Source: a phage. Taken from it: a stretch of DNA of 44,632 bases. Each line of letters begins with the position of its first letter. Positions within the stretch are counted from its first letter, which is position 1. Of this stretch, positions 1 to 36,556 are shown one piece after another. Made by a program: the position numbers and the translations under genes. Below the pieces are notes generated by a model. It did not search any database. It was not told the DNA's origin and worked only from the letters and a program-made list of their open reading frames with translations. The stretch lies in the NCBI GenBank assembly GCA_031490075.1, contig GCA_031490075.1_4354.1. One strand, written 5' to 3'.

Positions 1-10
1 AAAAAAAAAA

Positions 11-34
11 TCCCGGCTGGGTCAGGGCCGGGAT
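11..34 (-). terminator. Rho-independent terminator after the lysis cassette
   Basis: Hairpin TCCCGGC-N9-GCCGGGA preceded on the plus strand by A10, i.e. a U-run after the stem on the minus-strand transcript; lies just past the endolysin stop. Confidence 0.6.
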
Positions 35-98
35 AAAACTGGAGAGCAGAGGGATGGAGCAGGAGGTGATTTAAGTATCGTCGGATTAGTCTTATGTG

Positions 99-587
99 TC
101 AACCTTTCACCGCGCGCCCGATAGCCTCAGCCTCCTGCCACGGTTTACCGTCGAACAGCGCCAGACGACCGGCGGTACGACGACGCAGTCCAAGTATCGG
201 TTTGCCGTTCTGGTTGATGAACAGCGCCAGCTTAGCCCGCAGAGTCGTGACGTCACCAGAACGCAGTGCCTTACCTGTGCCAGTAGTAGCCGCAATCACA
301 CCGGCACCCGCGTTATACACCAGGTCGCACACTGCGTCGAACTGTGCCTGTGTCAATGAATGGTGTGCTGCTGCGTCAACCGCAGCTACGGCCTTAGCCA
401 TATCACGATTCAGTAACAGGAGTCCTTGTCCCGGGGTGATGGTCTGCCCCGCCTTAACATGCGGGCCATAGCTTCCATACCCAATAGTCAGGTACTTCTC
501 ATTCGGTGTAGCGCGATACGCGGTTCCGCGGAATCCCTCGAACGCGGCAGTGAATTTGATGCCATTATCTGAAATGTTTCGAGACAC
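99..587 (-). CDS. Endolysin, GH24 lysozyme (P22 gp19-like)
   Basis: Motifs NGIKF..EGFRGTAY..TIGYG and QAQFDAVCDLVYNAG..LRRRTAGRLALF resemble P22 gp19-type lysozymes. Start refined to GTG at 587 with GGAGGG 7 nt upstream; the longest ORF extends to 638. Confidence 0.8.
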   Translation of the reverse strand: MSRNISDNGIKFTAAFEGFRGTAYRATPNEKYLTIGYGSYGPHVKAGQTITPGQGLLLLNRDMAKAVAAVDAAAHHSLTQAQFDAVCDLVYNAGAGVIAATTGTGKALRSGDVTTLRAKLALFINQNGKPILGLRRRTAGRLALFDGKPWQEAEAIGRAVKG

Positions 588-837
588 GCTTATGCCCTCC
601 GTACGACAGCCACGACTGACGAATCTGTCGCAGCGCAACTAATGTGATTAATGTCTCAGGTAGCGTAGGTGACATGCTGCCCTGTAACAGGTGGATACAT
701 CCGGCGGCGCAGACAATAGCAGTCAGAATATAAAGCACACGCCCGAACAGCCAGTCGTCCACGTGTTCGTTATACACGTTGAACAGGGACGAAGCGCCCA
801 TTGAAAGCATTACGACAAACCAGAATAGCTCAGTCAT
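565..837 (-). CDS. Putative holin (small membrane protein)
   Basis: About 90 aa with two or three hydrophobic helices, immediately upstream of and overlapping the endolysin; ATG at 837 overlaps the stop of the upstream ORF. Confidence 0.5.
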   Translation of the reverse strand: MTELFWFVVMLSMGASSLFNVYNEHVDDWLFGRVLYILTAIVCAAGCIHLLQGSMSPTLPETLITLVALRQIRQSWLSYGGHKRVSKHFR

Positions 838-1138
838 GCGGTCCTCCTGGGCGGGCAATATCGCCGCCCGATACGATGCCAGAAAGGCGGGAATAGATAT
901 GCATCCAGAGAATAGCAATGATGAATCCGAGGCCAGCTATCTCGCGCTCGCCAGTAATACCAAACCATTGAGCGGCAAGAGGTGCGCCGAAAATGGCGCA
1001 CGCGAAGCCGGTGAGAAGAAATACCAGTCCGTCAATCGGCCCGGATATAGACTTTTTATGTTGTCTTAGTCCGACCAATCCACCGACCAGTGCGGCAGCG
1101 AGAAGCCACCCCGTCACTGTTTCAGTAAATTTACCCAA
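830..1138 (-). CDS. Putative holin/antiholin-like membrane protein
   Basis: 102 aa with about three hydrophobic segments; first gene of the lysis cassette. Confidence 0.45.
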   Translation of the reverse strand: MGKFTETVTGWLLAAALVGGLVGLRQHKKSISGPIDGLVFLLTGFACAIFGAPLAAQWFGITGEREIAGLGFIIAILWMHIYSRLSGIVSGGDIARPGGPHD

Positions 1139-1213
1139 GATGAATCCTCCAGGTGCGTATTAAGTATGCAGTAACTGGAGGATACCACGGGTAGGAATTA
1201 TCTTAATAACGGT

Positions 1214-1552
1214 TTATTTATGACGCCAGATGTATTGTCGTCTCTGCGGTTTAGTCGGAATATCATCGTATCCGAGCGATTTCCAGTAATTAAATAACCG
1301 ATTAGCGATTGCCGCGCGTTCCTGTGTTTTAAACTCTCCTAGATTCACGGCCTTTCCGTTCTGGAATCCACAGGCGCGGATAGCTTTACGCCGTTCTTGT
1401 ATCTCTGGGTACAGCACGTTACGGCGACGCTTGTGTATACGTGTCTTCGCTCTCGGTGACAGCGGCGCAAGGCCGCTTCGTTTCAGGATGTCAGTTGCTA
1501 ACGACATCACTCCACCCCCTCCACATGTGTAACCGACCCACAGTTCGCGCAC
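1214..1552 (-). CDS. Hypothetical basic protein
   Basis: ORF in the minus-strand left arm; Lys/Arg-rich; no family recognised. Confidence 0.35.
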   Translation of the reverse strand: MRELWVGYTCGGGGVMSLATDILKRSGLAPLSPRAKTRIHKRRRNVLYPEIQERRKAIRACGFQNGKAVNLGEFKTQERAAIANRLFNYWKSLGYDDIPTKPQRRQYIWRHK

Positions 1553-1695
1553 TCGACGTAATCAGGGTACTGGTCTTTGTATTTCTGTAACTCAGCTTCA
1601 AGTTTCGCGTAATCTTCGTAAAGCACTAACACGCCCTCAACATCAGGAGTAAACCCGAATATCTGGTCGTAGGTATATCTCTGCACCATAATCAC
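1507..1695 (-). CDS. Hypothetical protein
   Basis: ORF whose start overlaps the stop of the upstream ORF (ATGA). Confidence 0.4.
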   Translation of the reverse strand: MIMVQRYTYDQIFGFTPDVEGVLVLYEDYAKLEAELQKYKDQYPDYVECANCGSVTHVEGVE

Positions 1696-1910
1696 TTCTC
1701 CTGTTTACCAAGTCGCTTAGGTGAGCAGATAGCGCGTACCTCTGAATCGATGGGCTTGTTACCCTGAAACAGGAAGTGCGCGTTCTCTGCGGCGCGTGCC
1801 GCTGACTGGCACGCCTCCATTGAGTAAAACGTTTCTGATGCCGCGAGGTGCATCTGGCCCGCGGACAGTACCCAGATAAATAAGATGCTGGTCGTTTCTT
1901 TAACCCACAT
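1692..1910 (-). CDS. Hypothetical protein with hydrophobic N-terminus
   Basis: ORF translationally coupled to 1507..1695. Confidence 0.4.
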   Translation of the reverse strand: MWVKETTSILFIWVLSAGQMHLAASETFYSMEACQSAARAAENAHFLFQGNKPIDSEVRAICSPKRLGKQEK

Positions 1911-2285
1911 TTAATGCACATACATGGAAACCCGACTCCGTAAAATTGCCATTCGTGTTCACGCTGTTTCTCCTTCCACCGTACCCACATCCGCTGAACC
2001 TCTGGTTCAGCGTAGCCATTGTCTTTCCGGAGCCGGGGTGAACCCAAACCGGCTCCGGAACCATATTTCAAACTGCCGCAAAGTAAGTCTCACTTCCTGG
2101 TAACTTGAAGCCGTTTTCAGTTCTCACCACGTTCTACTCCATCCCGCCGTGGTACACAACCATGTCTTCTAAATCCAGGTCTATAATGGTTCCTACTTTG
2201 AAGATGCCTTTAGTCAGTTCACTGTCTCTTTTTGTAACTTTAACTTCTAACATTTCGTTTTCCTCTGTCTCGTCTGTGTAAATGA

Positions 2286-2314
2286 ATAGTAGCCTATTCT
2301 ATCTTAGTGTGCAA
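2286..2314 (-). promoter_or_regulatory. Sigma70-like promoter with embedded palindrome (TTGCAC-N17-TACTAT on minus strand)
   Basis: Read on the minus strand: TTGCAC, 17-bp spacer, TACTAT; contains AATAG-N4-CTATT at 2285-2298. Confidence 0.6.
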
Positions 2315-2408
2315 GTAAATTTTATTGGTGTTTGTATTGTTGCATTTCCTGCAATAGTCGCTTCGATTGTTGCGTTTGGTGGAATAGAACAAAAATGAGA
2401 AAAATGAT

Positions 2409-2428
2409 ACGCTGCTGTGTAGCAGCGT
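2409..2428 (-). terminator. Hairpin terminator (minus strand)
   Basis: ACGCTGCT-GTGT-AGCAGCGT 8-bp stem, followed on the minus strand by a T-run. Confidence 0.5.
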
Positions 2429-2925
2429 AAGTCACTCAGTAAAATCCCAAACTATTGAACATCACACCTCCGGCGGCTCAGGTAACGGCATCCAGTGCGT
2501 TATATCACCGTGATATAAACTCTTTGCAGGCCCCAGTAGCCATCTGAATTAACACGCATAACCTCACAGCCAACAAAACAATCAGTTACAAGAACGTATT
2601 CATAAGGCTCCGGCAGCATCTCACTACACTTAATCCACTCGCCCATAAATCACCCCTTATTCATCACAGCTTGCACACCAGCTTTCCACGCCCGCCACGC
2701 GAGACGTGTCTTAACGTTCAGGTACTCTTTCTTCGAACCCTTATTAACCGGCAGACCCTCGACGACGGCCCACCGTTCGAATGCTTCTCTCATACCAGAA
2801 CCTCGCATTCATCCCGATACACGAACAATAATGACCCTTTGTACTCAACCATAAAACCATAATGGTTGCTGCTGAACGTCAGAAAAACATCACCTACCGA
2901 GATACCGAAATCTATAAGCCTGCGG

Positions 2926-3165
2926 TCAGTTATTCGAATTTTCATTAACGGCAACCTCCCTCAGAGTCGTCGGCACGAGCATCATGATTAGATGCCGTTG
3001 TGTATATACCGGGACTGTGTATCTTCCTGTCTTAATCCACCAGCCATCCTCACAGGAATCCAGTACATTGAAAACATCACCCACATTTACGCCTATGCTT
3101 TCCAGAGTATCGTCGTCGTCTTTTTCGTAGGAAACTGTGTTATCTGTAATTATGATTTGCATCAC
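2926..3165 (-). CDS. Hypothetical protein
   Basis: ORF with acidic stretch; overlaps the next ORF. Confidence 0.4.
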   Translation of the reverse strand: MMQIIITDNTVSYEKDDDDTLESIGVNVGDVFNVLDSCEDGWWIKTGRYTVPVYTQRHLIMMLVPTTLREVAVNENSNN

Positions 3166-3359
3166 TTCGCCCCTTTGAATTTAAAATTGTTGCCGATGAG
3201 TTTTAACTCATTAGCTTCGTAATAAACCGAAGAAGTTAATCCGTCCCGCCTGATATAACGGATGATATAGGACCCTGGGTATACGACAGACTCTTTTCCG
3301 ACAACACCAAAGCCATATGCTGTTTTCACCAACTGACCCTTCTTAAACATAACCATCAC
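3162..3359 (-). CDS. Hypothetical protein
   Basis: ORF directly downstream of the minus-strand promoter at 3385-3413. Confidence 0.45.
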   Translation of the reverse strand: MMVMFKKGQLVKTAYGFGVVGKESVVYPGSYIIRYIRRDGLTSSVYYEANELKLIGNNFKFKGAK

Positions 3360-3384
3360 TCCTCTGTCTCGTTCCGATAAGTGA

Positions 3385-3413
3385 ATAGTATCCTATTATG
3401 TTGGGGTGTGCAA
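3385..3413 (-). promoter_or_regulatory. Sigma70-like promoter with embedded palindrome (TTGCAC-N17-TACTAT on minus strand)
   Basis: Read on the minus strand: TTGCAC, 17-bp spacer, TACTAT; AATAG-N4-CTATT at 3384-3397. The flanking sequence is closely similar to the promoter at 2286-2314. Confidence 0.6.
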
Positions 3414-3577
3414 GATAATAGTTACGTTGCCGTTGTGATTCTTTTGTTTCTTAAAAGAGTACGCAACGCAGTGGGTGGGCGTTAGCCCACCCCAGCGGAG
3501 TGAAGTACTCTCTACCTTGCTCACGGCAACTATAGAAACTTTTAATTATCAGTGACTTGGATATTTAGGCGGGATTA

Positions 3578-3722
3578 ACAATAGACTTTGACCCTTCCGA
3601 AAGCGTCAGCGGAACTACACTCAAGTGCCTAATGGCACGCGTTGCGTTCCCTGCCGCTCCGCGGTCGCTTGCGATATCTCACAAGCTCAGTGAAGCTTAG
3701 CATATTTTCAAGTAAAAGTCAA
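3578..3722 (+). repeat. Copy 1 of a ~145-bp imperfect direct repeat (partner at 36292..36434)
   Basis: Shared blocks cccttccgaa, gcgtcagcg, aactacactca, cgcggtcgcttg, cacaagctcag, catatttt, aaagtcaa in the same order and orientation. Confidence 0.7.
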
Positions 3723-3769
3723 TACCAGTAGCATCTTTTGTATTTTAGTAACTTTGCGTGGTGTTTTGG

Positions 3770-3798
3770 TTGCTTTTACAAAGTTACCGCCTTATACT
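3770..3798 (+). promoter_or_regulatory. Sigma70-like early promoter (TTGCTT-N17-TATACT)
   Basis: Consensus-like hexamers with 17-bp spacing upstream of the first plus-strand gene; no palindrome. Confidence 0.5.
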
Positions 3799-3827
3799 TC
3801 GATACATATTACACAGGAGAGCGCGAG

Positions 3828-3998
3828 ATGACTATCAATGAAGTTGCAGAATTAATCGGCGTCACCCGCCAGACGATCAATAACTGGATTAAGAGTGGAA
3901 AGTTTCCTGATTGCAGCGTTAAAGTAATGGGGCGCCGTTTACCAGGAACATTTGACCGTAATAAAGTTGAAGCGTGGATTAAGGAGAACGTGAAATGA
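3828..3998 (+). CDS. HTH DNA-binding protein (AlpA/excisionase-like fold)
   Basis: MTINEVAELIGVTRQTINNWIKSG is a typical helix-turn-helix; ATG at 3828 with GGAG upstream. The longest ORF starts at 3738 but that would overlap the promoter. Confidence 0.65.
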   Translation: MTINEVAELIGVTRQTINNWIKSGKFPDCSVKVMGRRLPGTFDRNKVEAWIKENVK

Positions 3999-4342: not shown

Positions 4343-6628
4343 ATGTCCGATGTAATTTTATCCTACTCGTGGTCACGCCGCAACGCGCGGGCGGGAAAAA
4401 AGGATATAAATGTCAGAACCGCACACACGGCAACACTGGACGACCTGAAAGAGTTAATCCAGCCGCTCGATGCCGTTCGCGACGGGATTAACCCTAAGAC
4501 CGCGCCCGGTTATATCACCGCCGCGTGCGACTCAACGCACAGCACCGTAAAAGACCCGGAAACTGGAGACTTTAAGCAAGCGCGTAAAGGTTTTTTCTAC
4601 CGCTGCGATGCGTCTGTAAGCAAATCGTCGCTGGCCTATCTGGATTTCGACAGCACAACACCGGAAGAGTATCAGGAAGCGGTGCGCCTGGTTAAGCGCA
4701 GCCGCCGGGCTATGTGCCTCTATACTACGGCGTCACATACCGATGAGTCTCCGCGCTTTCGCGTCGTCATGCCGCTGGCCCGTCCTGTTGAAGGCGGCGA
4801 CATCATCCGCGTTCGCCATGGATTGTTGGAACACTTCTTCAAAGGCATGGGCGCTGACCGCAGCGGGTTCACTCTTTCACAACCGATGTACCTGCCGCCA
4901 GTTGGCTCTCAGGTTATCTGGTCACGCCGCAATGACCTGGTTAACCCTGACGAGTTACTGGAGGGCATACCGGATTACGAGGTGAGCAGCGCATCGGATT
5001 ACCAGATACCGGAAGAACTGCGCACCGCGTTTACGGATGCGTTCGAGGCACTCGCGTTCGAGTATGGCGGCGTCATGACACCGCGTGGCCTGAAAATGCC
5101 AGCTACGCCGGAACACGCAGAGAACTACAGCGACCCGACCCCGCGCCCGGATGACTTCCTGCTGTGCTTCCCGCGCGAGGGGTATGAAGCGCCTAACGTA
5201 ACCATGATCCACGACACTGACATCACGGCAACCGAAGGCATGTCGCCGAAAGAGGTGTGGAAATACGTGTGCGATGCGACCGGGCTGCCATTCAGTGAAG
5301 TGGCAGAGGCTATCGGATGGGGGGCGCGTGAATCTGTTTCATGCAGCCTCGACGACCTGGAAGACGACGAGGACCCAGAGGAAGATGAGTTACCGGAACC
5401 GGTAAAGGCTGATTTCGTCGTTGAGGGGTACATGCCGTCGGATTGCATCTGGGATATTGTCGGGGAATCTGGCACGTACAAATCGTTCTATACGCTGGGG
5501 ATGATGTACCTTAGCGCCGCCGGATACAGGTTTGCTGGGGCAGATACCCAGCGTTGCCATCACTTCTATATCGACGGTGAGGGTGGCGCCACCACACGAA
5601 CACGTATTGATGCACTCGCGGCTAAATATGGTGAGGAAGGTAAAGATTATGTACATGTCATCGATATGGGCGAAATACTCGCTACGCATGGTGATAAAAA
5701 AATTCCAGCTCTAATCCGCAGGATGCGCGAAACCGCAGTGGATGAACCTATTGGCATGGTTGCCTTCGACACCCTTAACCAGACGCTGGCCCTGACGATT
5801 GATAAGTTCGACGAGAACAGTTCATCAACGGCAATCGGTATGGGTAAAGTTATCGCCATCCTGAAAGAAGTGCGCGATGCAACTAAAGCCGCTGTCGGTG
5901 TCGTTCACCATACTCCGAAGGGCGGAAAGAAAGCCCGCGGCAGTGGAGCATTGTATGCGGGTGTCGACGTGGAACTGACAATCGAACGCGCTACCGACCG
6001 TCAGATAAACGTATACCACTCTAAATTTAAGCACGGGCCTCAGCAGAAGACGGTTGGCATGGTGCTGGAGTCGGTACAGTTCCGTGAAGCGCCGCCGCCT
6101 AAAGAATACCGAGCGGTTGAGTTCCTGGGTAGCACAGAGGAATACGGCACAATCGTAAACCTGGACCTGCCTGAACCACACAAGGCGCTTGTGTTGATGC
6201 CGTGGGGTTTCGAGCCGTTCAAAACTGACGAGGAGAAAGAGCGGGAAGAAGGGTTGACGAAAGAAGGTAAAGAAAATGTACGTAAAACCGTAGAGAACGC
6301 CGTCAACAGTTCGGAGGCCACGATACTCGCGGCGTTTGAACTGGCGGAAGGAACCTACAACGGCAACGAAGGCATCACAGTCGCCGCGGCGAATAAGCTC
6401 GCACAGTCAGACCCCAACGCAAAGGAGTTTAACTCCAAAGAAGCCATAGAACGCGGGAAGATTAAGAAAATGGTTGAGGCTGGGTATCTTGTTCCGGGTA
6501 CTGACGAAAACAATCAGATAATCCCAGGCCGTTACAGACTGAACACCATGATAACAGATAACAAGATTCCGAAGACAATATACGAACCGAATGAAATGCT
6601 GACAGTGACCGAGGAGGATTTGGAATGA
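4343..6628 (+). CDS. Replication protein with RecA-like ATPase domain (putative primase/helicase)
   Basis: 761 aa; Walker A-like GESGTYKS and downstream Walker B-like acidic motif in the C-terminal half; N-terminal domain of primase-like size; position in the replication module. Confidence 0.6.
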   Translation: MSDVILSYSWSRRNARAGKKDINVRTAHTATLDDLKELIQPLDAVRDGINPKTAPGYITAACDSTHSTVKDPETGDFKQARKGFFYRCDASVSKSSLAYLDFDSTTPEEYQEAVRLVKRSRRAMCLYTTASHTDESPRFRVVMPLARPVEGGDIIRVRHGLLEHFFKGMGADRSGFTLSQPMYLPPVGSQVIWSRRNDLVNPDELLEGIPDYEVSSASDYQIPEELRTAFTDAFEALAFEYGGVMTPRGLKMPATPEHAENYSDPTPRPDDFLLCFPREGYEAPNVTMIHDTDITATEGMSPKEVWKYVCDATGLPFSEVAEAIGWGARESVSCSLDDLEDDEDPEEDELPEPVKADFVVEGYMPSDCIWDIVGESGTYKSFYTLGMMYLSAAGYRFAGADTQRCHHFYIDGEGGATTRTRIDALAAKYGEEGKDYVHVIDMGEILATHGDKKIPALIRRMRETAVDEPIGMVAFDTLNQTLALTIDKFDENSSSTAIGMGKVIAILKEVRDATKAAVGVVHHTPKGGKKARGSGALYAGVDVELTIERATDRQINVYHSKFKHGPQQKTVGMVLESVQFREAPPPKEYRAVEFLGSTEEYGTIVNLDLPEPHKALVLMPWGFEPFKTDEEKEREEGLTKEGKENVRKTVENAVNSSEATILAAFELAEGTYNGNEGITVAAANKLAQSDPNAKEFNSKEAIERGKIKKMVEAGYLVPGTDENNQIIPGRYRLNTMITDNKIPKTIYEPNEMLTVTEEDLE

Positions 6629-7168: not shown

Positions 7169-7198
7169 GTCAATTACTCCTTAGTCAGTTGATATGTG

Positions 7199-7228
7199 AA
7201 TAGTACCATATTAATTATTTTAGAAAAG
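7199..7228 (-). promoter_or_regulatory. Putative promoter of the XRE regulator gene with imperfect palindrome
   Basis: Minus-strand -10 TACTAT with weak -35; imperfect site AATAG-N4-ATATT at 7199-7212. Confidence 0.35.
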
Positions 7229-7232: not shown

Positions 7233-7261
7233 TTGACATGTGAATAGTTCGCTATTATAGT
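7233..7261 (+). promoter_or_regulatory. Sigma70-like promoter with embedded palindrome (TTGACA-N17-TATAGT)
   Basis: TTGACA, 17-bp spacer, TATAGT; spacer contains AATAG-N4-CTATT (7243-7256). Confidence 0.65.
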
Positions 7262-7289
7262 TAGCCCATACCAAACGAGAGGGGCGGAT

Positions 7290-9614: not shown

Positions 9615-9814
9615 TTCAAGTAAATGAAATGCCCACAGATAAAGATTTTGTGATGATATGGCGCTGGGGCGGTTATATCCATTCGGAATCGTTTACGTTC
9701 CTGAACGGCACGATGGTGCGATACAACCATGTGGAGGATGAATTCGAACCCGTTGATATGAATGATTTCGAGAACATAGTCCGTATTGCGAAATTTTATT
9801 TGACACCTGAATAG
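9611..9814 (+). CDS. Hypothetical protein
   Basis: ATGA-coupled to the nuclease gene. Confidence 0.4.
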   Translation: MIQVNEMPTDKDFVMIWRWGGYIHSESFTFLNGTMVRYNHVEDEFEPVDMNDFENIVRIAKFYLTPE

Positions 9815-9828
9815 TTAGCTATTATAGT
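9800..9828 (+). promoter_or_regulatory. Sigma70-like promoter with embedded palindrome (TTGACA-N17-TATAGT)
   Basis: TTGACA, 17-bp spacer, TATAGT; AATAG-N4-CTATT at 9810-9823. Confidence 0.65.
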
Positions 9829-9896
9829 TCTAATCACTGACCGGGCAGCTTCCCGGAGTAAACTTTGAAATATAAACTGAAAAGCGAGAAATCACG

Positions 9897-10523: not shown

Positions 10524-10542
10524 TATCTTAATCAATTTAACT

Positions 10543-10565
10543 AAGGCCCTTCATTGGGCCTTTTT
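10543..10565 (+). terminator. Rho-independent terminator
   Basis: AAGGCCC-TTCATT-GGGCCTT followed by TTTTT. Confidence 0.6.
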
Positions 10566-10734
10566 ACTAAGGGTCGAAAATAATGTTTTTCTGTAAACAC
10601 GTTTATCGCTATATGAAACCGCTTCCTTGGTACGCGGATGAGTACCGGGCCGGGTACAGGCATGTGTGGATTTGCCGTGATTGTATGAAAATAAGACTCA
10701 GCGAAACGAAGGCACTGGATTTAAGGAAAAAGAA

Positions 10735-13262: not shown

Positions 13263-13543
13263 CTAAAGAGGGCCGCATCCAGAAATACGCAAAAGAGCGA
13301 TTTGAGGCCCTTGGGGGCCTCGTTCGTAAACTTTCCTACGAGGGGCGTTCCGGCGCTCCCGACCTGCTGGTAATTCTCCCTGGCGGCATCGTCTGGTTCG
13401 TCGAGGTGAAGAAAGACGAAAGCACGAAGCCTGACCCGCACCAGTTACGAGAGCACGAGCGGATGCGTAAGCGTGGTGCAAATGTTTTTGTAGTTGGTTC
13501 GTTCAAACAGGTTGACACCCTAATAGCGAACTATTATAGTTAG
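13259..13543 (+). CDS. VRR-NUC domain nuclease
   Basis: PDLLVIL...VWFVEVKK matches the PD-(D/E)xK core of VRR-NUC; size about 95 aa fits the domain. The longest ORF (from 13079) overlaps the coupled small ORFs. Confidence 0.7.
   Translation: MTKEGRIQKYAKERFEALGGLVRKLSYEGRSGAPDLLVILPGGIVWFVEVKKDESTKPDPHQLREHERMRKRGANVFVVGSFKQVDTLIANYYS
13512..13540 (+). promoter_or_regulatory. Sigma70-like promoter with embedded palindrome (TTGACA-N17-TATAGT)
   Basis: TTGACA, 17-bp spacer, TATAGT; AATAG-N4-CTATT at 13522-13535. Confidence 0.65.
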
Positions 13544-16508: not shown

Positions 16509-16514
16509 AGAAAA

Positions 16515-16540
16515 GGCCCCGTTTGGGGCCTTGTTTATTT
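16515..16540. terminator. Bidirectional rho-independent terminator between early and late modules
   Basis: GGCCCC-GTTT-GGGGCC flanked by AAAA on one side and TTGTTTATTT on the other. Confidence 0.7.
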
Positions 16541-26884: not shown

Positions 26885-26913
26885 TTGCACACCCCAATAT
26901 AATAGGGTACTAT
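26885..26913 (+). promoter_or_regulatory. Sigma70-like promoter with embedded palindrome (TTGCAC-N17-TACTAT)
   Basis: TTGCAC, 17-bp spacer, TACTAT; AATAG-N4-CTATT at 26901-26914; GGAGGGG SD follows. Confidence 0.65.
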
Positions 26914-26943
26914 TCACTTACACCAACAATGGAGGGGTTTAAA

Positions 26944-27135
26944 ATGTCCAGTTTACCAGTTTCCTTAATTCTGTTTGCACTGCTCGCTTATTTCGCGCCT
27001 TTCCTGGTTGCGTATTTCCGTAACCATAAAGCGAAATTAGCGATATTCATGGCTAATCTGTTTCTTGGATGGGTTCTGCTGCCGTGGGTATTTATTTTAA
27101 TCTGGGCTTGCAACTCGAATGTCAAAGAGAAGTGA
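26944..27135 (+). CDS. Small membrane protein (two predicted helices)
   Basis: 63 aa, mostly hydrophobic; start placed at ATG 26944 downstream of the promoter (the longest ORF from 26845 would include the promoter). Confidence 0.5.
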   Translation: MSSLPVSLILFALLAYFAPFLVAYFRNHKAKLAIFMANLFLGWVLLPWVFILIWACNSNVKEK

Positions 27136-27172
27136 GCTAGTATAGGACAAATCCTAAGCACGAGGAATAAAC

Positions 27173-28303
27173 ATGGCCCGGAAGAAAATAACCGACGAAC
27201 AGTTGCAGGAAGAATTGAACGCCGGTATGAAGAATGTAGATATCGCCCGTAAATACGGCATCTCAGACCGCGTAATTCGTATCCGTAAAGCGAAGCTGGC
27301 TAAGAAAGGCGTGGGCCACGGGCGCGACGTTAGCCACCTTGTGCCAGACGGCTACAAGATTAAAGGAACGTCGTCACTTGTGGACGAGTTCGGCAACACT
27401 AAGTTGCAATGGGTTAAGACTGATACCGACGCCGAACGTCAGGTTGAATTGATGAAAGCCGTAATAGAGGGCATGAAGTCAGAGATTACGCCCGTTGCGC
27501 CTGTTAAAGCGGCGCGCGCCAAACGTGACGACAAGCTACTCAATCTTTACACTGTATCTGATTTCCATCTCGGTATGCTGGCATGGGCCGATGAGAGCGG
27601 CGACGACTGGGACATGAAGATTGCAGAAGACCTGTTCTCTCGGTGGTTCGACGCGGCGTTTCAGAAAGCACCGGATGCAGGAACAGGAGTTATTAACCTG
27701 CTTGGGGACTTCGCACACTTCGATAGTCTTGATGCCGTTACCCCCGAGTAGCGCCATGTATTAGATGCGGATACTCGCTATCAGAAACTGGTACGTTACA
27801 TGATTCGTATGGTCCGCCGTGTTGTTGATATGGCGCTGGTTAAGCATCACACAGTAAAACTTTTAATCGTTCAAGGTAACCACGACCCTGTTGGCTCCGT
27901 ATGGCTTGCTGAAATGTTCACGGTTTTATACTCAAACGACAGCCGAGTGATTGTTGATACGTCGCCGGATGTTTACAAGATGGTGCAACACGGCAAAACG
28001 ACGCTGTTCTTCCATCACGGGCATAAAGCACGATTCGACGCTATCGAACCGGTTATGATTGCCAAGTTCCGTAAAGCGTTCGGCGAGAGTGTTTACAGCT
28101 ACGCCCACGTAGGCCATCTGCACCACCAGAAGATTGTAGAAAGCCGTAACATGATTGTTGAGCAACACCGCACCTTAGCGGCTAAAGACGCCTACGCCTC
28201 TCGCGGCGGATGGATGTCGGGCCGCAGTGCAAATGTAATTACTTATAGCGCCGAATATGGCGAGGTCGCACGTTTAACTATTTCACCGGAGATGCTGGGA
28301 TGA
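27173..28303 (+). CDS. Calcineurin-like metallophosphoesterase with N-terminal HTH-like region, interrupted by an in-frame TAG at 27749-27751
   Basis: Track ORFs 27173..27751 and 27800..28303 are in the same frame with a single TAG between them. Motifs SDFHLG and LLGDFAHFD lie upstream of the stop; QGNHD, HHGH and GHLHH lie downstream. Confidence 0.65.
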
Positions 28304-28788
28304 AAGATATTGTAATTTTCGATTTAGACGGGACATTGGCCGACGGTACCCATCGCTTACACCTGTTACCAAAAGATAACTACGGAGAAACGTGGGCGTG
28401 GAAGCCATTTAACATGGCCTGCAAAGATGACGCTCCGATATACGACAATATCCATTTGTGTAGCGTACTGTGGCATTCCGGACTTACTATAATTATCCTT
28501 ACCGGGCGAAGTGATGACGCTGAGGAGGAGACTCGCGAATGGTTACGAGAGAATAACGTTAGGTTTGACACGCTAATCATGCGCAGCAAACACGACAACA
28601 GAAAAGACATCGTAATTAAAGAAGAGGTGTTGCGTGCTTTCGGACTGGAAAGAATCTTGTGTGCGTTCGACGACTCTCCAGCGGTAATAAAGCATTTCCG
28701 TGACCTCGGCATAACCGCACACGCAGTTACCGAATACGACTGTAACGGGAACTCTACACACTTAAAACCACACGGGAGCGATAAATAA
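28300..28788 (+). CDS. HAD-superfamily phosphatase (nucleotidase or polynucleotide 3'-phosphatase-like)
   Basis: N-terminal FDLDGTL is the HAD motif I; start overlaps the upstream stop. Confidence 0.7.
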   Translation: MKDIVIFDLDGTLADGTHRLHLLPKDNYGETWAWKPFNMACKDDAPIYDNIHLCSVLWHSGLTIIILTGRSDDAEEETREWLRENNVRFDTLIMRSKHDNRKDIVIKEEVLRAFGLERILCAFDDSPAVIKHFRDLGITAHAVTEYDCNGNSTHLKPHGSDK

Positions 28789-29342
28789 TGGCTAAGGTAA
28801 TTATTCTTAATGGCCCTGCGGGTTGCGGGAAAGACACGCTTGCTATGGCGCTGGTAGAAATGGGCTTTGCGAAAGGAACTACCAGTTTCAAGAATCCAAT
28901 GTTCAATATTGCTTTGGCAGCGTTAGGCCAGGATGCTTACCACGAATTTCTCGACGGCTACGACGACCGGGCGCGGAAAGAAAAACCAGAGGGTTTTCTT
29001 AATGGGTTGTCCCGCCGCCAGTTAATGATTGCCATTTCTGAGCAATTCATTAAACCGGTATTCGGCGATGATTATTTCGGTAAGTATCTTGCTGAAAACT
29101 TGCCTGACGGCGACGAAGTTTTTGTAGTGTCCGATGGTGGATTCGCCAGTGAAGTTGCCCCTATCGTCGCCGCGGGGCATGACGTGCGAATCGTCCGCCT
29201 CCATCGTGACGGCTATACGTTCATCTGCGATAGCCGTGGCTATCTGTACGATGTTAGTGGTGTAAAAGATTACGACACCTACATCATACCGGGTGACGTT
29301 AAATCGAACGTTATAGACATTGCTTTAAAATTAGGTTTGTAA
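28788..29342 (+). CDS. P-loop kinase (dNMP kinase-like)
   Basis: N-terminal VIILNGPAGCGKDT Walker A with the GKDT variant, which I recall from T4-type dNMP kinases. Confidence 0.55.
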   Translation: MAKVIILNGPAGCGKDTLAMALVEMGFAKGTTSFKNPMFNIALAALGQDAYHEFLDGYDDRARKEKPEGFLNGLSRRQLMIAISEQFIKPVFGDDYFGKYLAENLPDGDEVFVVSDGGFASEVAPIVAAGHDVRIVRLHRDGYTFICDSRGYLYDVSGVKDYDTYIIPGDVKSNVIDIALKLGL

Positions 29343-29348
29343 GAAAAA

Positions 29349-29370
29349 GGCCCCGAAAGGGGCCTTAGTT
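29349..29370. terminator. Bidirectional terminator
   Basis: GGCCCC-GAAA-GGGGCC flanked by A-run and T-run; between convergent genes. Confidence 0.7.
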
Positions 29371-30543
29371 TTATGCGTAGGTGATACGTTGAATTACGAT
29401 AGACGACTGGTACTGATTGCCGGTAGCCTGGCCTTCAATGGACTGAGTGATTGACTCAGGCCCACCAATCTCAGGTGTAACCGCCGTAAGCTCTGCACGT
29501 TTCAAACTGAAAGACATAGCCCCGTTTACCCCTGCCAGAATAGAGTTAATCTCTACCTGCTGCTCGTTGATAAACTTCTGAATCATCGCCATGTCGTACA
29601 GCTTGCCAGAGATAGAGAATGTGTTAGCTGCGCGTCCACGTTCGACGAACGCCACGCTACTGTTACCGAGTTCGAACTGCGCGGAAGCTCCGTTGTCGTT
29701 GGTGATGGTGAGAGTATCGCAACGCAACGGCGTGGAGCCATCGAACACCGACACATCTACCGACGAGAACGGCTCATCGGTGAACGTAACCTGAGAGAAA
29801 TCAGAGCCAGACGGCTGCGCGGTAAGAATCTCCTGACTCAGGCCGATGAACGGGAAGCTGCCGGTGACCATGGCGTTAACCGCCTGCTCTACGGTAAAGC
29901 CAGAGATTTCCACACCTTTGGTCAGCATGTACGCGTCCGGGTTACCACGCCGGCCCTTGAACCACGTCAGGATGGAGAACGTCTTACACGCGTTACCGGT
30001 TTCCAGCTTGTCGCCAGTTTTTGCGTCAGTGGTTACTGTCTCTGCTGTCAGCGTGTGCTGAATACCTGCGCCCGTAACTACCAGAGCGGAAACCGCGGTC
30101 ACGATAAACGGTTTTGCGTTGTCGCCGGCTAAGTCGGTGAACGCAATAAGGTCGCCAACTTCTACACCGTCAGTAATGAAGCTACCAGCAGCGCGGGTGA
30201 ATGTTTTACCTGCTGGGGTGACCGTAATTTCGGCGCCAGTAATCTCTACCCCAGCTTGCCACGTAGAAGCCATCGCTCCCGCAAGGAAATCATCCTGGCT
30301 ACGAGAGCTAAGTTCGATGGCGTACTCCCCGCTAACCTGTTTGTTGCCGGTTCGGATGGATGTAGTTTCACGGCTGCCGTCCAGTTCGTTGGAAGTCAGT
30401 GCATCGCGGGTTACAGCGGGAACGCCGCCCGTGTTACGCAACGGCGACCATACCGGGTTAGTCGGTGTTACGCCAGGGGTATTTTCCGCCACATAGAATT
30501 GCGCGGTATTCGCGCCCTTAAAAGGAGTTGTAGCCATATTCAC
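29371..30543 (-). CDS. Major tail protein
   Basis: 390 aa, Thr/Gly/Ala-rich; position immediately upstream (in transcription order) of the chaperones and tape measure. Confidence 0.65.
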   Translation of the reverse strand: MNMATTPFKGANTAQFYVAENTPGVTPTNPVWSPLRNTGGVPAVTRDALTSNELDGSRETTSIRTGNKQVSGEYAIELSSRSQDDFLAGAMASTWQAGVEITGAEITVTPAGKTFTRAAGSFITDGVEVGDLIAFTDLAGDNAKPFIVTAVSALVVTGAGIQHTLTAETVTTDAKTGDKLETGNACKTFSILTWFKGRRGNPDAYMLTKGVEISGFTVEQAVNAMVTGSFPFIGLSQEILTAQPSGSDFSQVTFTDEPFSSVDVSVFDGSTPLRCDTLTITNDNGASAQFELGNSSVAFVERGRAANTFSISGKLYDMAMIQKFINEQQVEINSILAGVNGAMSFSLKRAELTAVTPEIGGPESITQSIEGQATGNQYQSSIVIQRITYA

Positions 30544-30956
30544 AGCCTCTTGGTGAATGCAATAAAGTTAATTGACAATGGTCGTTTGGCCCATCCGTTT
30601 TCTACAATCAGCGGCCCCAGGCTAACCGATTGAACCTCGGCGCAGATGTCGTTACGCGAAAATGCCTTACCTGATTTAAACGCCGTGTTAAGTAAGTCTG
30701 CCATTTTATTGATTGGCGCGCTACCTTTCACCGATGCGTAGTTAATGTCTATCTGATAGACACCGGCGCGTTGTTCCGTGAAGAATAAGTCAGCCTGCTC
30801 GGTATCCGCCAGCAACATGTAACTTGCCAGATACGGCGTATCTGTTGACGTCGGCGCGTCGATGTTTTCAAGCGCTACCTTGATGCCGTTGGTGGTTCCG
30901 AAGGCTACCAGCGGCACATCAAACGCTTTTGTTAAGTCCTCAAAGTAGCCCATCAT
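30540..30956 (-). CDS. Tail terminator / tail completion protein (by position)
   Basis: Gene immediately preceding the major tail gene; overlapping junctions. Confidence 0.45.
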   Translation of the reverse strand: MMGYFEDLTKAFDVPLVAFGTTNGIKVALENIDAPTSTDTPYLASYMLLADTEQADLFFTEQRAGVYQIDINYASVKGSAPINKMADLLNTAFKSGKAFSRNDICAEVQSVSLGPLIVENGWAKRPLSINFIAFTKRL

Positions 30957-31348
30957 CTCACCTTGCTAGCTTCTTCGTTAATGAGTTGCTGGAAGCGGGA
31001 CACGTTAGTCCTGACGAATCCTTGCGGGGCCTGTTGCGACCAGCCATACTCAAGCCGTTGTGCATACGGCAGGTTATTTGTCAGCGTGAACTCATGCCAG
31101 TCGGTGGCTTTCAGCACGAAACTTGTAGCGTTTCCGGTTGCTGTGTTTCCTGATTTATCCGTAGCATCCGTAATCCCGGAAGCAGGAGTACCGCCAGATG
31201 CCATCCAGTTCATGCGAAACCGACCAGTATCTACCGGACTCGCCTTTATAATAGCGGAAAACAGCTTGATAGACACCTGACGCATCACCTTCTCAGGGTT
31301 CTTCTTCGCCTTTTCCACGAACTTAGAGACGTCCAGCGCGAAACTCAT
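30953..31348 (-). CDS. HK97 gp10-like neck/tail completion protein
   Basis: SPVDTGRFRMNW resembles the conserved P-x-DTG-x-LR motif of the HK97 gp10 family. Confidence 0.55.
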   Translation of the reverse strand: MSFALDVSKFVEKAKKNPEKVMRQVSIKLFSAIIKASPVDTGRFRMNWMASGGTPASGITDATDKSGNTATGNATSFVLKATDWHEFTLTNNLPYAQRLEYGWSQQAPQGFVRTNVSRFQQLINEEASKVR

Positions 31349-31704
31349 TTTCTCACCTGAATAAAGTAGGCCACAACATCATCGTTAACCACCTTCTTCT
31401 CAATGGCTACGACGGACCATTGCTCGCCGCCGAATTGCACCTTGTCTTCCATCTTCGGAACTACGCTGTAATCGGCTTTAACAATCATGTCACCCGCCTG
31501 AATCGTCGTACCGTTCACCAGTCCCACGTTTACAGGAACCGGAACGGCCTTCAACGGCAACACTTCATCCGCAGACCAGACGTATTCACCGAGAACTTCA
31601 TCCCACACTTTCGAGCCAGCGCGAACAAGAGACACCGTACTACCGAATTTGGTTAGCAGGCGTGTGCCGACGCCTTGCATACGTTTACTGAAAGCGGTGC
31701 TCAT
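31345..31704 (-). CDS. Head-tail connector protein (by position)
   Basis: Start placed at ATG 31704, coupled to the small ORF upstream; the longest ORF extends to 31791. Confidence 0.4.
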   Translation of the reverse strand: MSTAFSKRMQGVGTRLLTKFGSTVSLVRAGSKVWDEVLGEYVWSADEVLPLKAVPVPVNVGLVNGTTIQAGDMIVKADYSVVPKMEDKVQFGGEQWSVVAIEKKVVNDDVVAYFIQVRK

Positions 31705-31832
31705 GTTGACTCCCCGCAAACCGCTAAAAATATAATTAGAGCTGTTGTTGATACCAGCGCAAACACTGATACCAAAAATTCGTACTTCCACAAAAAATCA
31801 GAGTTAATCCACATATTAATTATTTTACGCAT
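31701..31832 (-). CDS. Small hydrophobic peptide nested between neck genes
   Basis: 43 aa; start overlaps the stop of 31832..32446 and its stop overlaps the ATG at 31704. Confidence 0.35.
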   Translation of the reverse strand: MRKIINMWINSDFLWKYEFLVSVFALVSTTALIIFLAVCGEST

Positions 31833-32446
31833 TACACGGCCTCCAGTCTCGAAATAACCAGTAGCGCGGACGGTGCCGTGCCCCATGCAGTTACAGTAGC
31901 CACCTGCGGATATACGCCTCCGAAGTTAGTCCCGGCGCTATCTCGCATAATCTGAACGGCGAATGTTTGCCCGGCGGTTGGGTTAATCACTACACGGGAT
32001 TCAATAGGGATGGTGGTTTCCGAGCTAACAAGTTTCGTAGCTGCTGGTGAGCCGTACTGAGCGCCGTTAATGAGGATACGCGACAACAGGATAGGCGTTC
32101 CGCTAGCGCCGGAGCGACCGGCCTGTAACTTGATGCGAACGGCATAGTTACCCGCGGTGTTGAATGTAACCAGCCCCGCAGCATTAATCATTACCGGGTC
32201 AGATGCACTACCCTGAGCAGAGCCGAACGATACCTGCAACGCCGTATCTACTGCGGTAGGTGCTTGCGCTACTGTCGACGCAGCGCGGAGAACTTCAACC
32301 TCTTTAACACCCGGAGTGGCGTAAATAGGTGAGTCAGCCATCTGGGTTAATACCCCGCGCAACTTCGCAGGCGTAATAAGTCCGGTCGTGTTGTCCGGTA
32401 GCTCGGAACCGATTAGCGTGAATATCTCTGATTTAGTCTTCGCCAT
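31832..32446 (-). CDS. Structural protein of the head-tail junction (unassigned)
   Basis: Position in neck gene block. Confidence 0.4.
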   Translation of the reverse strand: MAKTKSEIFTLIGSELPDNTTGLITPAKLRGVLTQMADSPIYATPGVKEVEVLRAASTVAQAPTAVDTALQVSFGSAQGSASDPVMINAAGLVTFNTAGNYAVRIKLQAGRSGASGTPILLSRILINGAQYGSPAATKLVSSETTIPIESRVVINPTAGQTFAVQIMRDSAGTNFGGVYPQVATVTAWGTAPSALLVISRLEAV

Positions 32447-32448
32447 TT

Positions 32449-32961
32449 TTAACCCCGGTACACGTTAAACGAGAAACCATTGTTAAGACCGCCACACAAT
32501 AACGGGCGTAAAGCGTCGTCAGCAGCGGTAATCGCGGTCGTAGCGCCACTGTTGCCATTGTTGAAGTAGGTCACTGTTACCGCACCCTCGACACGCTCAG
32601 TCTGCACGGCGCGACCGTCTGAGTTAGCCCGGACTTCGGTGCCCTCGCCATATGTAGCGGCAGCGATTACCTGCGCAAGAATCACCTGTTTCGGAATGGC
32701 GTTGTTGACCACCGGGAACCCGTTTAACGTAACGCCGGTGCGGGGGTATGCAAGAGACTGTTCGGCGGATACTCGACGACCGCACATCTGCGGTTCTGCA
32801 AGCCCTACATAAGTAGCACCGTTGCGTAAGGCCACCTCTGCTGCGGTATCGTCTTCCGGCAGCTCAAGGCCATAATTAGCCGCTAACGCGCGGGCGTCAG
32901 CCAGACTAATGTAACTGTCGGCATTTGGGACGATCACCCCAGTTTCCACGATTAGCGGCAT
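32449..32961 (-). CDS. Structural protein of the head-tail junction (unassigned)
   Basis: Position in neck gene block. Confidence 0.4.
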   Translation of the reverse strand: MPLIVETGVIVPNADSYISLADARALAANYGLELPEDDTAAEVALRNGATYVGLAEPQMCGRRVSAEQSLAYPRTGVTLNGFPVVNNAIPKQVILAQVIAAATYGEGTEVRANSDGRAVQTERVEGAVTVTYFNNGNSGATTAITAADDALRPLLCGGLNNGFSFNVYRG

Positions 32962-33180
32962 AAATTATTCCTCTGACTTACGGCGACGACGCTTAGTACC
33001 ACCGCCGTTGTTGTGCGCTTCTTCATTGTCTGGTTGGGTTGCAACCAGTTCATCCGCTTCTACCACACCGCGAACAGGCATCACCTGTCCGTCAACGATA
33101 TCAACGTGGGTATACTTTTCGCGGATTACGTAATTATCTGCCATGACCTTTCCTTATTACAGCCCCGAAGGGCCGTTGTA

Positions 33181-33531
33181 TTAAGACACAGTTGCTACGG
33201 TGCTGCTGGAGATAATATTACCATACACATCGTGAACAACCACTTTATACGTGCCTGAATCTGCGGTAGTAGTGGACGCCTTCGCATAGGTAGCTGCGGT
33301 GGCTCCGTCGATGGCGTTGTTATCTTTGTACCACTGGTAGGAATACGGCTCCAGACCGCCAGTTACCACTACGGTAAGAGTCATAGTCTGCCCCACCTTA
33401 ACTGCGGTGGTAGCCGCAAGCGCGGTAGAAAAAGACGCTGGCGAGATATTCGCCATATCGATTTCAACCTGACCATCGGCAGGAGAATCATCAGAAACAC
33501 CGGTAATGCGACGTTTGATTACATCAACCAT
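33181..33531 (-). CDS. Ig-like domain protein (possible capsid decoration)
   Basis: LEPYSYQWYKDNNAI...DSGTYKVVV resembles immunoglobulin-like (I-set type) repeats. Confidence 0.5.
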   Translation of the reverse strand: MVDVIKRRITGVSDDSPADGQVEIDMANISPASFSTALAATTAVKVGQTMTLTVVVTGGLEPYSYQWYKDNNAIDGATAATYAKASTTTADSGTYKVVVHDVYGNIISSSTVATVS

Positions 33532-33565
33532 TTTTAAGCTCCTTTAGCTTACAGTTCCTGCGTCT

Positions 33566-33790
33566 TTAAGCGCAGTCACCAGATTTGCTACGGTAGTGCG
33601 CAGCGCGGTAACATCGGTTCGGAGTTTGTTGTACCCCGGCGGCGGCGGTAATGGCCGCAGGTGCAGCCACAGTAGCTGACTTTTTAACCCCACCAACTAC
33701 GCTGGTAGTAGCAGGCGTGACTGGGATATCAAAGTCACCGAAGTCGACATTCTGAAGGCTGCGCGGCAAGCCTTTTCCGGTCTTAGCCAT
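33566..33790 (-). CDS. Hypothetical small protein
   Basis: ORF just downstream of the capsid gene. Confidence 0.35.
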   Translation of the reverse strand: MAKTGKGLPRSLQNVDFGDFDIPVTPATTSVVGGVKKSATVAAPAAITAAAGVQQTPNRCYRAAHYRSKSGDCA

Positions 33791-33849
33791 AATTTACCTC
33801 TTAGTAAATGAAAAGAGGGACCGAAGTCCCTCTCGATTATAGCTTAACC

Positions 33850-34899
33850 TTAAGCACCAACACCAGTTACCAGGAAGGCAATCGGTACGTGCTTGCGGTC
33901 AACCACACGGTTCCAGTTGGAGGCGTTCGCCAGGTCCTGCCAGGAAGCAGAGCGCGGGGTAGTCTCGGTGCCGTTGCCAGTGATTACTGCACTGGTGAAG
34001 CTGTAACCAAACGGATGTAGCAACCAGGTCTTACGGGTCCACAGGGTTTCAACGCCGCCGCCGTTGCCGCGGGACGCTTCGCGCTCGTATTCCAGCGGGT
34101 TGGACGGAGAACCTTCACCGTAACCGATAGCGCCGTTGCCGAAGATGATGGAGATGAACTTACTGGTCGAGCCAGTGACGACTACGGTCATGCTGTCGTC
34201 AACAATCACGCGGTAGCCCTGGTAGGTGGCGAACATGGTGTTGTTGTCCGCGTCACGGATGAAGTCGATAAGCTGCTGCTTACGTGCCTGCGCATAAACG
34301 AAGCTATGCATCGCGATAGCCCCCCGCACTTCACCGCCGTTGCCCATCAGAGCATCGCCCATAGTCTGGGTAGCGTCGATGAACGCGCCCGCATCGAAGC
34401 CCAGAGTAGCAGACACGTCGATTACCATGTCATTCCGCTCGTGGTATGCGTCGGTAGCGGCTACGTTGTCATTGTACAGCCCGAGCGCGGTAGCAATCAG
34501 ACGGCGTTGTGCCTGACGCTGCCAGAAGTTATCCAGACGTGACGCTACGGATTGCAGCGGGTTCTGGCTGGTCAGTTCAACGGTCAAATCCGCCTGACCG
34601 AAACCTTCGTTCAGGTACGCAACGCGCGCCATCATCTCGCCGGTCTGCACGTTACGCGGGGTGGCGATGTCCTGGTATACGTCGTTCGAGTAGTTCGGCT
34701 CGATAGAGGTATCAATCGCTTTCCAGAAAGGAATATTAGCGACGTTGGACGGGCCGCGGGCAATCTCGGCAGCGTACGGGGTCGGGGTCAGAATACCAGA
34801 CTGGAAGAACGCGGTTTTTTCTACCGGGTCCTCGGTCATATAAGACGCCAGGACCGGGATGTTGCCAGTTACGATATCGCCGATAGTGGTAATTGCCAT
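33850..34899 (-). CDS. Major capsid protein
   Basis: 349 aa, directly after the scaffold-like gene; GAGGAAA SD; composition typical of capsid proteins. Confidence 0.65.
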   Translation of the reverse strand: MAITTIGDIVTGNIPVLASYMTEDPVEKTAFFQSGILTPTPYAAEIARGPSNVANIPFWKAIDTSIEPNYSNDVYQDIATPRNVQTGEMMARVAYLNEGFGQADLTVELTSQNPLQSVASRLDNFWQRQAQRRLIATALGLYNDNVAATDAYHERNDMVIDVSATLGFDAGAFIDATQTMGDALMGNGGEVRGAIAMHSFVYAQARKQQLIDFIRDADNNTMFATYQGYRVIVDDSMTVVVTGSTSKFISIIFGNGAIGYGEGSPSNPLEYEREASRGNGGGVETLWTRKTWLLHPFGYSFTSAVITGNGTETTPRSASWQDLANASNWNRVVDRKHVPIAFLVTGVGA

Positions 34900-34901
34900 T
34901 A

Positions 34902-35603: not shown

Positions 35604-35685
35604 AGTCAGTATGTCCCCTGGACGTTGGAACCCGGGCCACCCGGATTTACATGTCAAGAATAAATTATTCCAACATGCAAGGCAA

Positions 35686-36529: not shown

Positions 36530-36556
36530 TCATTCTATCGAACCGAGGAGGCCGCC

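Follow-up and report, generated by a model that had tools for sequence, protein, structure and literature searches.

Why does a phage genome carry the same noncoding segment twice, each time at a point where minus-strand transcription gives way to a plus-strand unit? A sequence-only reading of the window (the whole 44,632-nucleotide stretch of phage DNA analyzed here) had described an imperfect direct repeat of about 145 bp at two such points, and had offered as candidates a structured noncoding RNA, an insulator or origin-like element, the boundary of a duplicated mobile cassette, and a substrate for recombination. The window is a Kagunavirus (Guernseyvirinae) genome: its region 3400–3830 shares 99% identity with Escherichia phages vB_Eco_K-02, phiEc3, and phiEc4, and 228 phage records match it, all of them Kagunavirus or Jersey-like siphoviruses with E. 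coli, Salmonella, Raoultella, Shigella, or Klebsiella as hosts. The complete genomes of K1G and SETP13, to which we refer below, are classified under Guernseyvirinae.

The Repeat Pair and Its Surroundings

The direct repeat is real. Pairwise alignment by blastn of copy 1 with the whole window matched 3579–3722 to 36292–36434 with 78.9% identity over 147 columns (E=1.2e-26), a similarity far above chance, the next-best match in the window having an E-value of 0.11. All the conserved blocks that had been listed were found in both copies, which lie as described in one orientation, in intergenic DNA between divergently transcribed units. The diverged stretches said to separate these blocks proved to be mainly the P3 and P4 arms of the RNA described below, plus the helix-proximal parts of P2 and P1. 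A weaker similarity runs about 45 bp further left, to ~3528 and ~36246, and includes ATAGAAAC and TCAGT blocks; the longest exact run common to both copies in the window is 13 nt. Scanned with a covariance model of the element, the window gave two matches and no more, each on the minus strand (table 1). The position of the repeat beside plus-strand promoters was correctly noted, but it carries no meaning beyond the geometry of a divergent promoter region, because the leftward operons have the element as their 5′ leader.

Other repeat families of the window are also listed in table 1. One is made up of near-consensus sigma70 promoters (e.g., TTGACA-17-TATAGT) whose spacer holds an AATAGT..CTATT palindrome, probably the operator of a phage regulator; in work on phage fBC-Eco01, this motif was presented as the consensus of a "phage RNA polymerase promoter" (PMC9825357). 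Another consists of terminator hairpins, among which a terminator scan flagged 29347–29366 and 37051–37070 on both strands, and 16513–16532 and 39395–39414 on the plus strand only.

Table 1. Coordinates of the leader RNA, its promoters, and neighboring features in the window
Feature	Position	Strand	Description
Leader RNA, copy 1	3579–3690	-	Covariance-model match, 85 bits, E=1.7e-19
Copy 1, helix P1	3686–3667	-	GCUUGUGA/UCGCAAGC
Copy 1, P2-P3-P4	3664–3597	-	Long bulged hairpin
Copy 1, 3′ tail	3596–3579	-	Conserved
Promoter P_E1	3694–3722	-	-35 TTGACT 3722–3717, 17-nt spacer, TG 3702–3701, -10 TAAGCT 3699–3694; predicted from sequence
GC-rich hairpin	3473–3492	-	GGGUGGGC-UAAC-GCCCACCC, ~95 nt downstream of copy 1, lacks canonical U-tract
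Second, gene-proximal promoter	3385–3413	-	TTGCAC-17-TACTAT, AATAG..CTATT palindrome in spacer; repeat families D1/D2/I2
Transcription unit 1, proximal part	1–3359	-	Small genes, then holins, endolysin
Leader RNA, copy 2	36292–36401	-	Covariance-model match, 140 bits, E=4.8e-34
Copy 2, helix P1	36397–36377	-	
Copy 2, P2-P3-P4	36374–36310	-	Long hairpin
Copy 2, 3′ tail	36309–36292	-	
Promoter P_E2	36406–36434	-	-35 TTGACT 36434–36429, 17-nt spacer, TG 36414–36413, -10 TAAGCT 36411–36406
Perfect 16-bp palindrome	36433–36448		AACTATTCGAATAGTT, abuts -35 of P_E2; read off the sequence
Leader spacer	36226–36291	-	Between copy 2 element and terminator
Intrinsic terminator t1	36196–36225	-	GCCCCGC-UUUAUG-GCGGGGC, then UUUACUUAUC; terminator scan
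Transcription unit 2	29371–36181	-	Rz-like gene, scaffold, major capsid, connectors/head-tail, tail-tube genes
AATAGT..CTATT promoter family	7189–7218, 7233–7262, 9800–9829, 13512–13541, 26885–26935, 36501–36551	+	
AATAGT..CTATT promoter family	2261–2320, 3360–3419	-	
Terminator hairpin family	16511–16532, 29345–29366, 37049–37070, 10539–10566, 39391–39418		AAAAGGCCCC-N4-GGGGCCTTTT and variants, at operon ends

A Folded Minus-Strand RNA behind a Dedicated Promoter

We are highly confident that each copy encodes a minus-strand structured leader RNA with a promoter of its own. The RNA, about 110 nt long, opens with a 5′ hairpin, P1 (GCUUGU...ACAAGC), which is followed by a GA linker, a long bulged hairpin (P2-P3-P4), and a conserved tail (UUCGGAAGGGCC...GUCUAUUG). 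P2 is made of CCG/CGG plus GGCGCG/CGCGUU, with two conserved G·U pairs, and P3 of CAG/CUG, a bulged G, and GUAAC/GUUAC; the asymmetric internal loop has GGAG on its 5′ side and a conserved GAGUGUAG on its 3′ side. The apical stem P4 is variable, being GUGCC/GGCAC, GGAC/GUCC, GGUGC/GCAC, GGGGC/GCCC, or CACGUC/GACGUG in different variants. The same architecture was obtained from every variant folded singly, and the MFE fold of copy 1 has a z-score of -3.0.

Plain MAFFT alignment scrambled the apical stem, and a covariance-model alignment was used instead, the model being derived from a length-homogeneous seed in which one row received one inserted G for register. With the caveat that the alignment is fitted to the model and that the sequences are related, 97.3% of 844 helix cells were paired in 31 distinct sequences, versus 33–36% when partners were slid by 1–3 columns; in the same sequences, double-sided changes affected seven pairs (57 cells), and the covariation score was 0.197 versus 0.076 in shuffles, a value that none of 500 shuffles reached. 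A screen of all column pairs for pseudoknot or tertiary covariation returned the annotated helices only, with no convincing pseudoknot. The helices hold 84 G·U cells versus 4 A·C cells on the minus strand, and pairing would drop to 87.8% if the element were read as the plus strand; the functional molecule is therefore the minus-strand RNA, and a plus-strand RNA, with its weaker fold and the loss of the 84 G·U pairs, was rejected. The structured RNA proposed by the sequence-only reading thus gains strong support from covariation, but it is transcribed from the minus rather than the plus strand and has another anatomy.

The RNA had no counterpart in the collections searched: Rfam 15 gave zero matches at gathering score in the whole window and zero at E≤10 in 3400–3760, and a tRNA/tmRNA scan found nothing. 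We consider it a previously undescribed RNA family of a known general kind, that of cis-regulatory leaders, and probably an antitermination signal.

Each element is preceded by a string, TTGACT-17-TGnTAAGCT, that is the conservation signature of a predicted extended -10 sigma70 promoter: a -35 element, a 17-nt spacer, the TGn motif, and a -10 hexamer with A2 and T6 are all present. Comparison of 56 distinct genuine copies, taken from GenBank, IMG/VR, and metagenomes, shows no change in the TG, the -10 hexamer, or the 17-nt length of the spacer, and the -35 TTGACT departs only once, with a C at one position in a single copy; the variable positions are the N of TGn (C, A, or G) and several in the spacer. 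A consensus promoter scanner missed P_E because TAAGCT matches the consensus at only three of six positions. The -10 element lies 5–6 nt from GAGCUUGUG, which places the predicted start 1–2 nt ahead of the first helix, at G3688 or A3687 for P_E1 and at G36399 or A36398 for P_E2, on the minus strand. No sigma-dependent pause element common to both copies was found, the P1 loop reading AAGTAT (-10-like) in copy 2 and AGATAT in copy 1. A published Kagunavirus time course gives gene-level classes only, without start sites or leader coverage.

The small AAGCT..AGCTT hairpin that had been singled out in each copy exists as sequence, but one of its arms belongs to the minus-strand promoter (the -10 hexamer) and the other to P1 (the 5′ strand of that helix), and it is not a hairpin of the leftward RNA. 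It is not a credible plus-strand terminator either, a candidate rejected for its 5–6 bp stem with 2–3 G-C pairs as well as for the identity of its arms. The -10 hexamer (TAAGCTC) complements the first residues of P1 (GAGCUU), 3694–3699 matching 3683–3688 and 36406–36411 matching 36394–36399. Speculatively, in a transcript that enters from further upstream, these bases could pair in an alternative hairpin and so withhold the P1 5′ arm from its helix, a possible way to limit correct folding to transcripts from the dedicated promoter.

Two Operons, a Constant Copy and an Optional One

Copy 2 fronts the head and tail genes (unit 2), which were assigned from their open reading frames (ORFs), the annotation of K1G and SETP13 orthologs, and a PHROG match. 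About 70 nt downstream of the element stands the terminator t1 (hairpin 36225–36206 plus the tail UUUACUUAUC), whose U-tract is interrupted and whose stem shows a compensatory change, GCCCTGC/GCAGGGC, in two relatives (L004 and L012). The first start codon follows ~25 nt past t1, which leaves no room for another promoter in between. Element and t1 fold independently and have no conserved alternative pairing. The terminator scan also placed a terminator-like hairpin inside unit 2, after the capsid gene (33834–33813), and a bidirectional terminator at its end (29366–29347). The order element, t1, gene recurs in K1G, in which the preceding operon has its own terminator and the sole promoter before the capsid operon is that of the element; transcripts of the capsid operon therefore begin with the element RNA and must pass t1.

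The palindrome AACTATTCGAATAGTT is present only at the copy 2 locus and is absent at copy 1. Its center, at about -41.5 of P_E2, is the classic position of a class II activator, and, in everted form, its half-sites are those of the AATAGT..CTATT operator palindrome. The leader spacer of copy 2 is partly similar to that of copy 1 (ACUGAnAnUUA...GUUUCUAU).

At the copy 1 locus, the GC-rich hairpin downstream of the element is replaced in other copy 1 variants by a different GC-rich hairpin in the same place, terminator-like in ST20, a phage that carries both copies and is a near relative of vB_Eco_K1B4. On the circular map, unit 1 continues from the proximal genes listed in table 1 to small genes (44402–43118) and then to the terminase, portal, and head-morphogenesis genes (42711–37090), as deduced from the ORFs, the vB_Eco_K-02 annotation, the K1G gene order, and synteny across the window ends in two sequences (L276 and L289). 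A plus-strand ORF at 38737–39390 breaks this run and has a hairpin of the terminator family at its right (39391–39418; D13/I3), so that a single uninterrupted unit 1 transcript is not established. Copy 1 is moreover optional: K1G and SETP13 each have one covariance-model match and lack copy 1, and at this locus they carry a plain consensus promoter, TTGACA-16/17-TAAAAT or TAAGTT (36650–36720 in K1G, L002; 35990–36030 in SETP13, L003). K1G nevertheless has, further downstream, both the ACTGATAATTAAAAGTTTCTATAGTT block and the GGGGTGGGC hairpin, which are therefore modules separate from the RNA element.

Several observations concern the genes and motifs around copy 1. The first gene after it (3162–3359, minus strand) encodes a conserved 65-aa basic protein of pI 9.9 (MFKKGQLVK...LIGNNFKFKG; PHROG 12538) for which no Pfam match was found; should the RNA depend on a factor from the phage, this protein would be a candidate. 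The divergent early 56-aa gene at 3828–3998 matches HTH_17, an excisionase-like family, with no sequence match to the solved AlpA structure. No obvious protein site common to both copies was seen in their shared part. Just past the downstream hairpin, UACUCUUUUAAGAA at 3449–3462 (minus strand) loosely resembles an rrn-type boxA, in the order hairpin then boxA; it has an extra U, fails a formal boxA search at three or fewer mismatches, and is not conserved in Golestan-type leaders. In vB_Eco_K-02 (L001), published hypothetical-protein ORFs overlie the RNA element and its leader (5243–5332, plus strand; 4997–5125, minus strand), and they are very probably spurious, given the covariation and the presence of indels that are not multiples of three.

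Related phages were searched for the 259-nt leader of copy 2: 181 phage records contain it, 179 of them with a full-length identity of at least 95%; the same records hold 230 leader places, a second place being present in about a quarter. The copy 2 element is 97–99% identical in K1G and SETP13, versus 74–95% for the neighboring genes. In the comparison with Salmonella phage SETP13, identity is 97.3% for the RNA element, 100% for the leader spacer, 95.5% for the terminator and ribosome-binding site, and 74–83% for the three downstream genes. No match was found in 5,426 complete E. coli genomes. Scans of genome and metagenome contigs used a pattern with 17 specified bases and returned mostly chance matches; after filtering there remained Guernseyvirinae-like contigs only, one of them mis-binned in a "Bacillota" MAG. 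The element is the most conserved noncoding segment found in these genomes; it is restricted to Guernseyvirinae and under very strong purifying selection.

Exchange between the loci is suggested by mosaic variants, in which some copy 1 elements have a copy 2-type promoter and P1 (E2010), and which also suggest that the two copies are functionally interchangeable. In Golestan-type phages, the two copies have 38 identical nucleotides in common. The metagenome contig OIHY01001419.1 (L279, 5212 nt) carries at ~2137–2280 a hybrid element that joins the upstream flank of copy 2 to the downstream flank of copy 1, with the crossover inside that 38-nt stretch, and represents either a real deletion between the repeats or a repeat-induced assembly chimera. 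The idea that the repeats mediate recombination has this one ambiguous case in its favor, the contig being equally readable both ways; the exact runs shared in the window, of at most 13 nt, are too short for efficient homologous recombination.

Possible Functions of the Leader

The best-fitting known logic would be processive antitermination by a leader RNA, which is favored because a dedicated promoter, a folded 5′ RNA, and a terminator to be traversed precede long late operons. The extended -10 sigma70 promoter would fire leftward, and the transcript would start 1–2 nt before the structured RNA. This RNA would fold on emerging from RNA polymerase, alone in the manner of put or with a phage or host factor in the manner of nut, and would make polymerases coming from P_E resistant to t1 and to internal terminators, giving full-length transcripts of unit 2 (head and tail) and of unit 1 (small genes, lysis, packaging). 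We tentatively prefer this interpretation of the element as a cis-acting processive antitermination leader, put- or nut-like in organization. It is consistent with the second terminator-like hairpin after the capsid gene and with the two copies heading two long operons, and the independent folding of element and t1, their separation by ~70 nt, and the lack of alternative pairing argue for an effect on the polymerase rather than for terminator-specific attenuation. On the other hand, similarity to put (at most 5.2 bits) and a boxA are lacking; the interrupted U-tract of t1 means that passive read-through might suffice; the copy 1 hairpin is noncanonical as a terminator in the window and is separated from the genes by a second promoter; and the element is dispensable for unit 1, since K1G and SETP13 lack copy 1 and use a plain promoter. 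Nor do the terminal terminators of the operons have unusually long stems, a feature described in certain antitermination operons (PMC10325885).

In organization, the put RNAs of phage HK022 appear to be the closest analogue. They occur in two copies, putL begins at +2/+3 after a sigma70 promoter and has terminators downstream, and they act independently of proteins, on terminators more than 10 kb away (PMC9378689). The element follows the same layout: a structured RNA of stem-loops borne by the nascent transcript, at about +2/+3 directly after a sigma70 promoter, in two copies that each head a long operon containing terminators. It differs from put in length (~110 versus ~70 nt), in anatomy (a short hairpin plus a long bulged hairpin, versus two comparable stems with a triplex), and in setting, as the late operons of a virulent siphovirus are concerned here and the early operons of a temperate lambdoid phage in HK022. 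Homology to put was rejected: with filters off, the best score of the covariance model (R1) in HK022 27000–31000 was 5.2 bits (E>2), away from the put sites. It is a rather doubtful, though more specific, proposal that the element would represent a second class of antiterminator RNA, factor-free like put but of independent evolutionary origin, binding host RNA polymerase directly and driving the late operons of virulent Guernseyvirinae. The palindrome formed by the -10 hexamer and P1 would then ensure correct folding only in transcripts from the dedicated promoter.

Other antitermination systems offer partial parallels. In lambda (P_R′-qut-t_R′), the late promoter is followed by a leader of ~200 nt (6S RNA) that ends in an intrinsic terminator, and t_R′ must be read through, by Q antitermination, for the lysis and morphogenesis genes to be expressed. 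The succession of late promoter, leader, and terminator ahead of lysis or morphogenesis genes is similar here, but Q systems depend on a site in the DNA and on a sigma-dependent pause close to the promoter, whereas the element is a conserved RNA fold. The nut sites of lambda and P22 and the boxB-boxA-boxC signals of rrn leaders, which assemble terminator-resistant elongation complexes, resemble the element as RNA signals in the leaders of two operons; the element is, however, far larger than the 15-nt boxB hairpin, and no N-like protein was identified. In the annotations of vB_Eco_K-02, K1G, and SETP13, there is neither an N- or Q-type antiterminator protein nor a phage RNA polymerase. A boxA (GCUCUUUAACAA-like) was searched for and rejected, with none within three mismatches in 3357–3690 or 36182–36400 and window-wide matches at chance level (35 versus 39 expected). 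The RfaH ops/JUMPstart motif GGCGGTAGnnTG was likewise rejected: the sole matches in the repeat (CGCGGTCGCTTG, two mismatches) lie on the plus strand, the template for the leftward RNA, and counts are again at chance (38 versus 38.9).

It is unlikely, in our estimation, that the element instead stabilizes or processes the mRNA, P1 shielding it from 5′-end-dependent RNase E decay and the long hairpin acting as an RNase III site that sets the stability or stoichiometry of the late messages. Such a role would agree with the location of P1 just 1–2 nt from the predicted 5′ end, with the optional nature of the element at locus 1, and with the lower stem, asymmetric internal loop, and upper stem of P2-P4, a layout that resembles the RNase III sites of T7 mRNAs, irregular hairpins also repeated in the phage genome. 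T7 sites are intergenic, whereas the element stands at +3 of a dedicated promoter, and RNase III sites tolerate much sequence change, whereas the loop sequences of the element are much more conserved than these sites require. Stabilization would leave unexplained the terminator between element and genes, the near invariance of loop and tail across E. coli and Salmonella phages, and the constant pairing of the element with its own promoter.

A stand-alone small RNA of ~195 nt (copy 2) or ~215 nt (copy 1), abundant and acting in trans on targets of the host or the phage while the operon is expressed by leaky read-through, is less probable still. Promoter, structured RNA, and terminator do form a complete small transcription unit, and the whole copy 2 leader is extremely conserved, spacer included; yet the capsid operon has no other promoter and would need substantial read-through anyway, the copy 1 hairpin has no U-tract in the window, and an unsystematic look for target complementarity identified none. 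We regard as very improbable a conditional attenuator or riboswitch-like sensor, in which a metabolite or a phage protein would decide on termination at t1 specifically. The order leader, structured domain, terminator, gene is classic for riboswitches and the unpaired nucleotides of the internal loop and tail are strongly conserved, but element and terminator lie ~70–100 nt apart and fold independently with no conserved antiterminator pairing, the terminators differ between loci and among variants, and no Rfam riboswitch matched even at E≤10. As for a role at the DNA level, whether in replication (an origin), in insulation or protein binding, or as the boundary of a recombination event or a mobile cassette, we hold it to be extremely improbable: the copies do lie in divergent promoter regions, copy 1 beside replication genes, and the hybrid element of contig L279 links the two loci, but compensatory changes keep helices and strand-specific G·U pairs that double-stranded DNA sites do not need, conservation follows the promoter and the RNA helices, the universally conserved copy fronts the capsid operon rather than replication genes, there are neither flanking mobility genes nor copies in E. 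coli genomes, and L279 is a short contig whose crossover in a 38-nt identical stretch is typical of assembly chimeras.

To our knowledge, control of transcription elongation by RNA alone is represented so far by essentially one system, the put RNAs of HK022. If the factor-free reading of the antitermination leader were true, an unrelated and larger RNA would provide a second example of a nascent RNA that reprograms RNA polymerase. Guernseyvirinae are virulent phages that are widely isolated for use against E. coli and Salmonella in therapy and biocontrol, and such a leader would explain how they express late operons of 7–11 kb without a phage RNA polymerase or a recognized antiterminator. Whatever its mechanism, the element defines a new RNA family that genome annotations have missed or hidden under spurious small ORFs.
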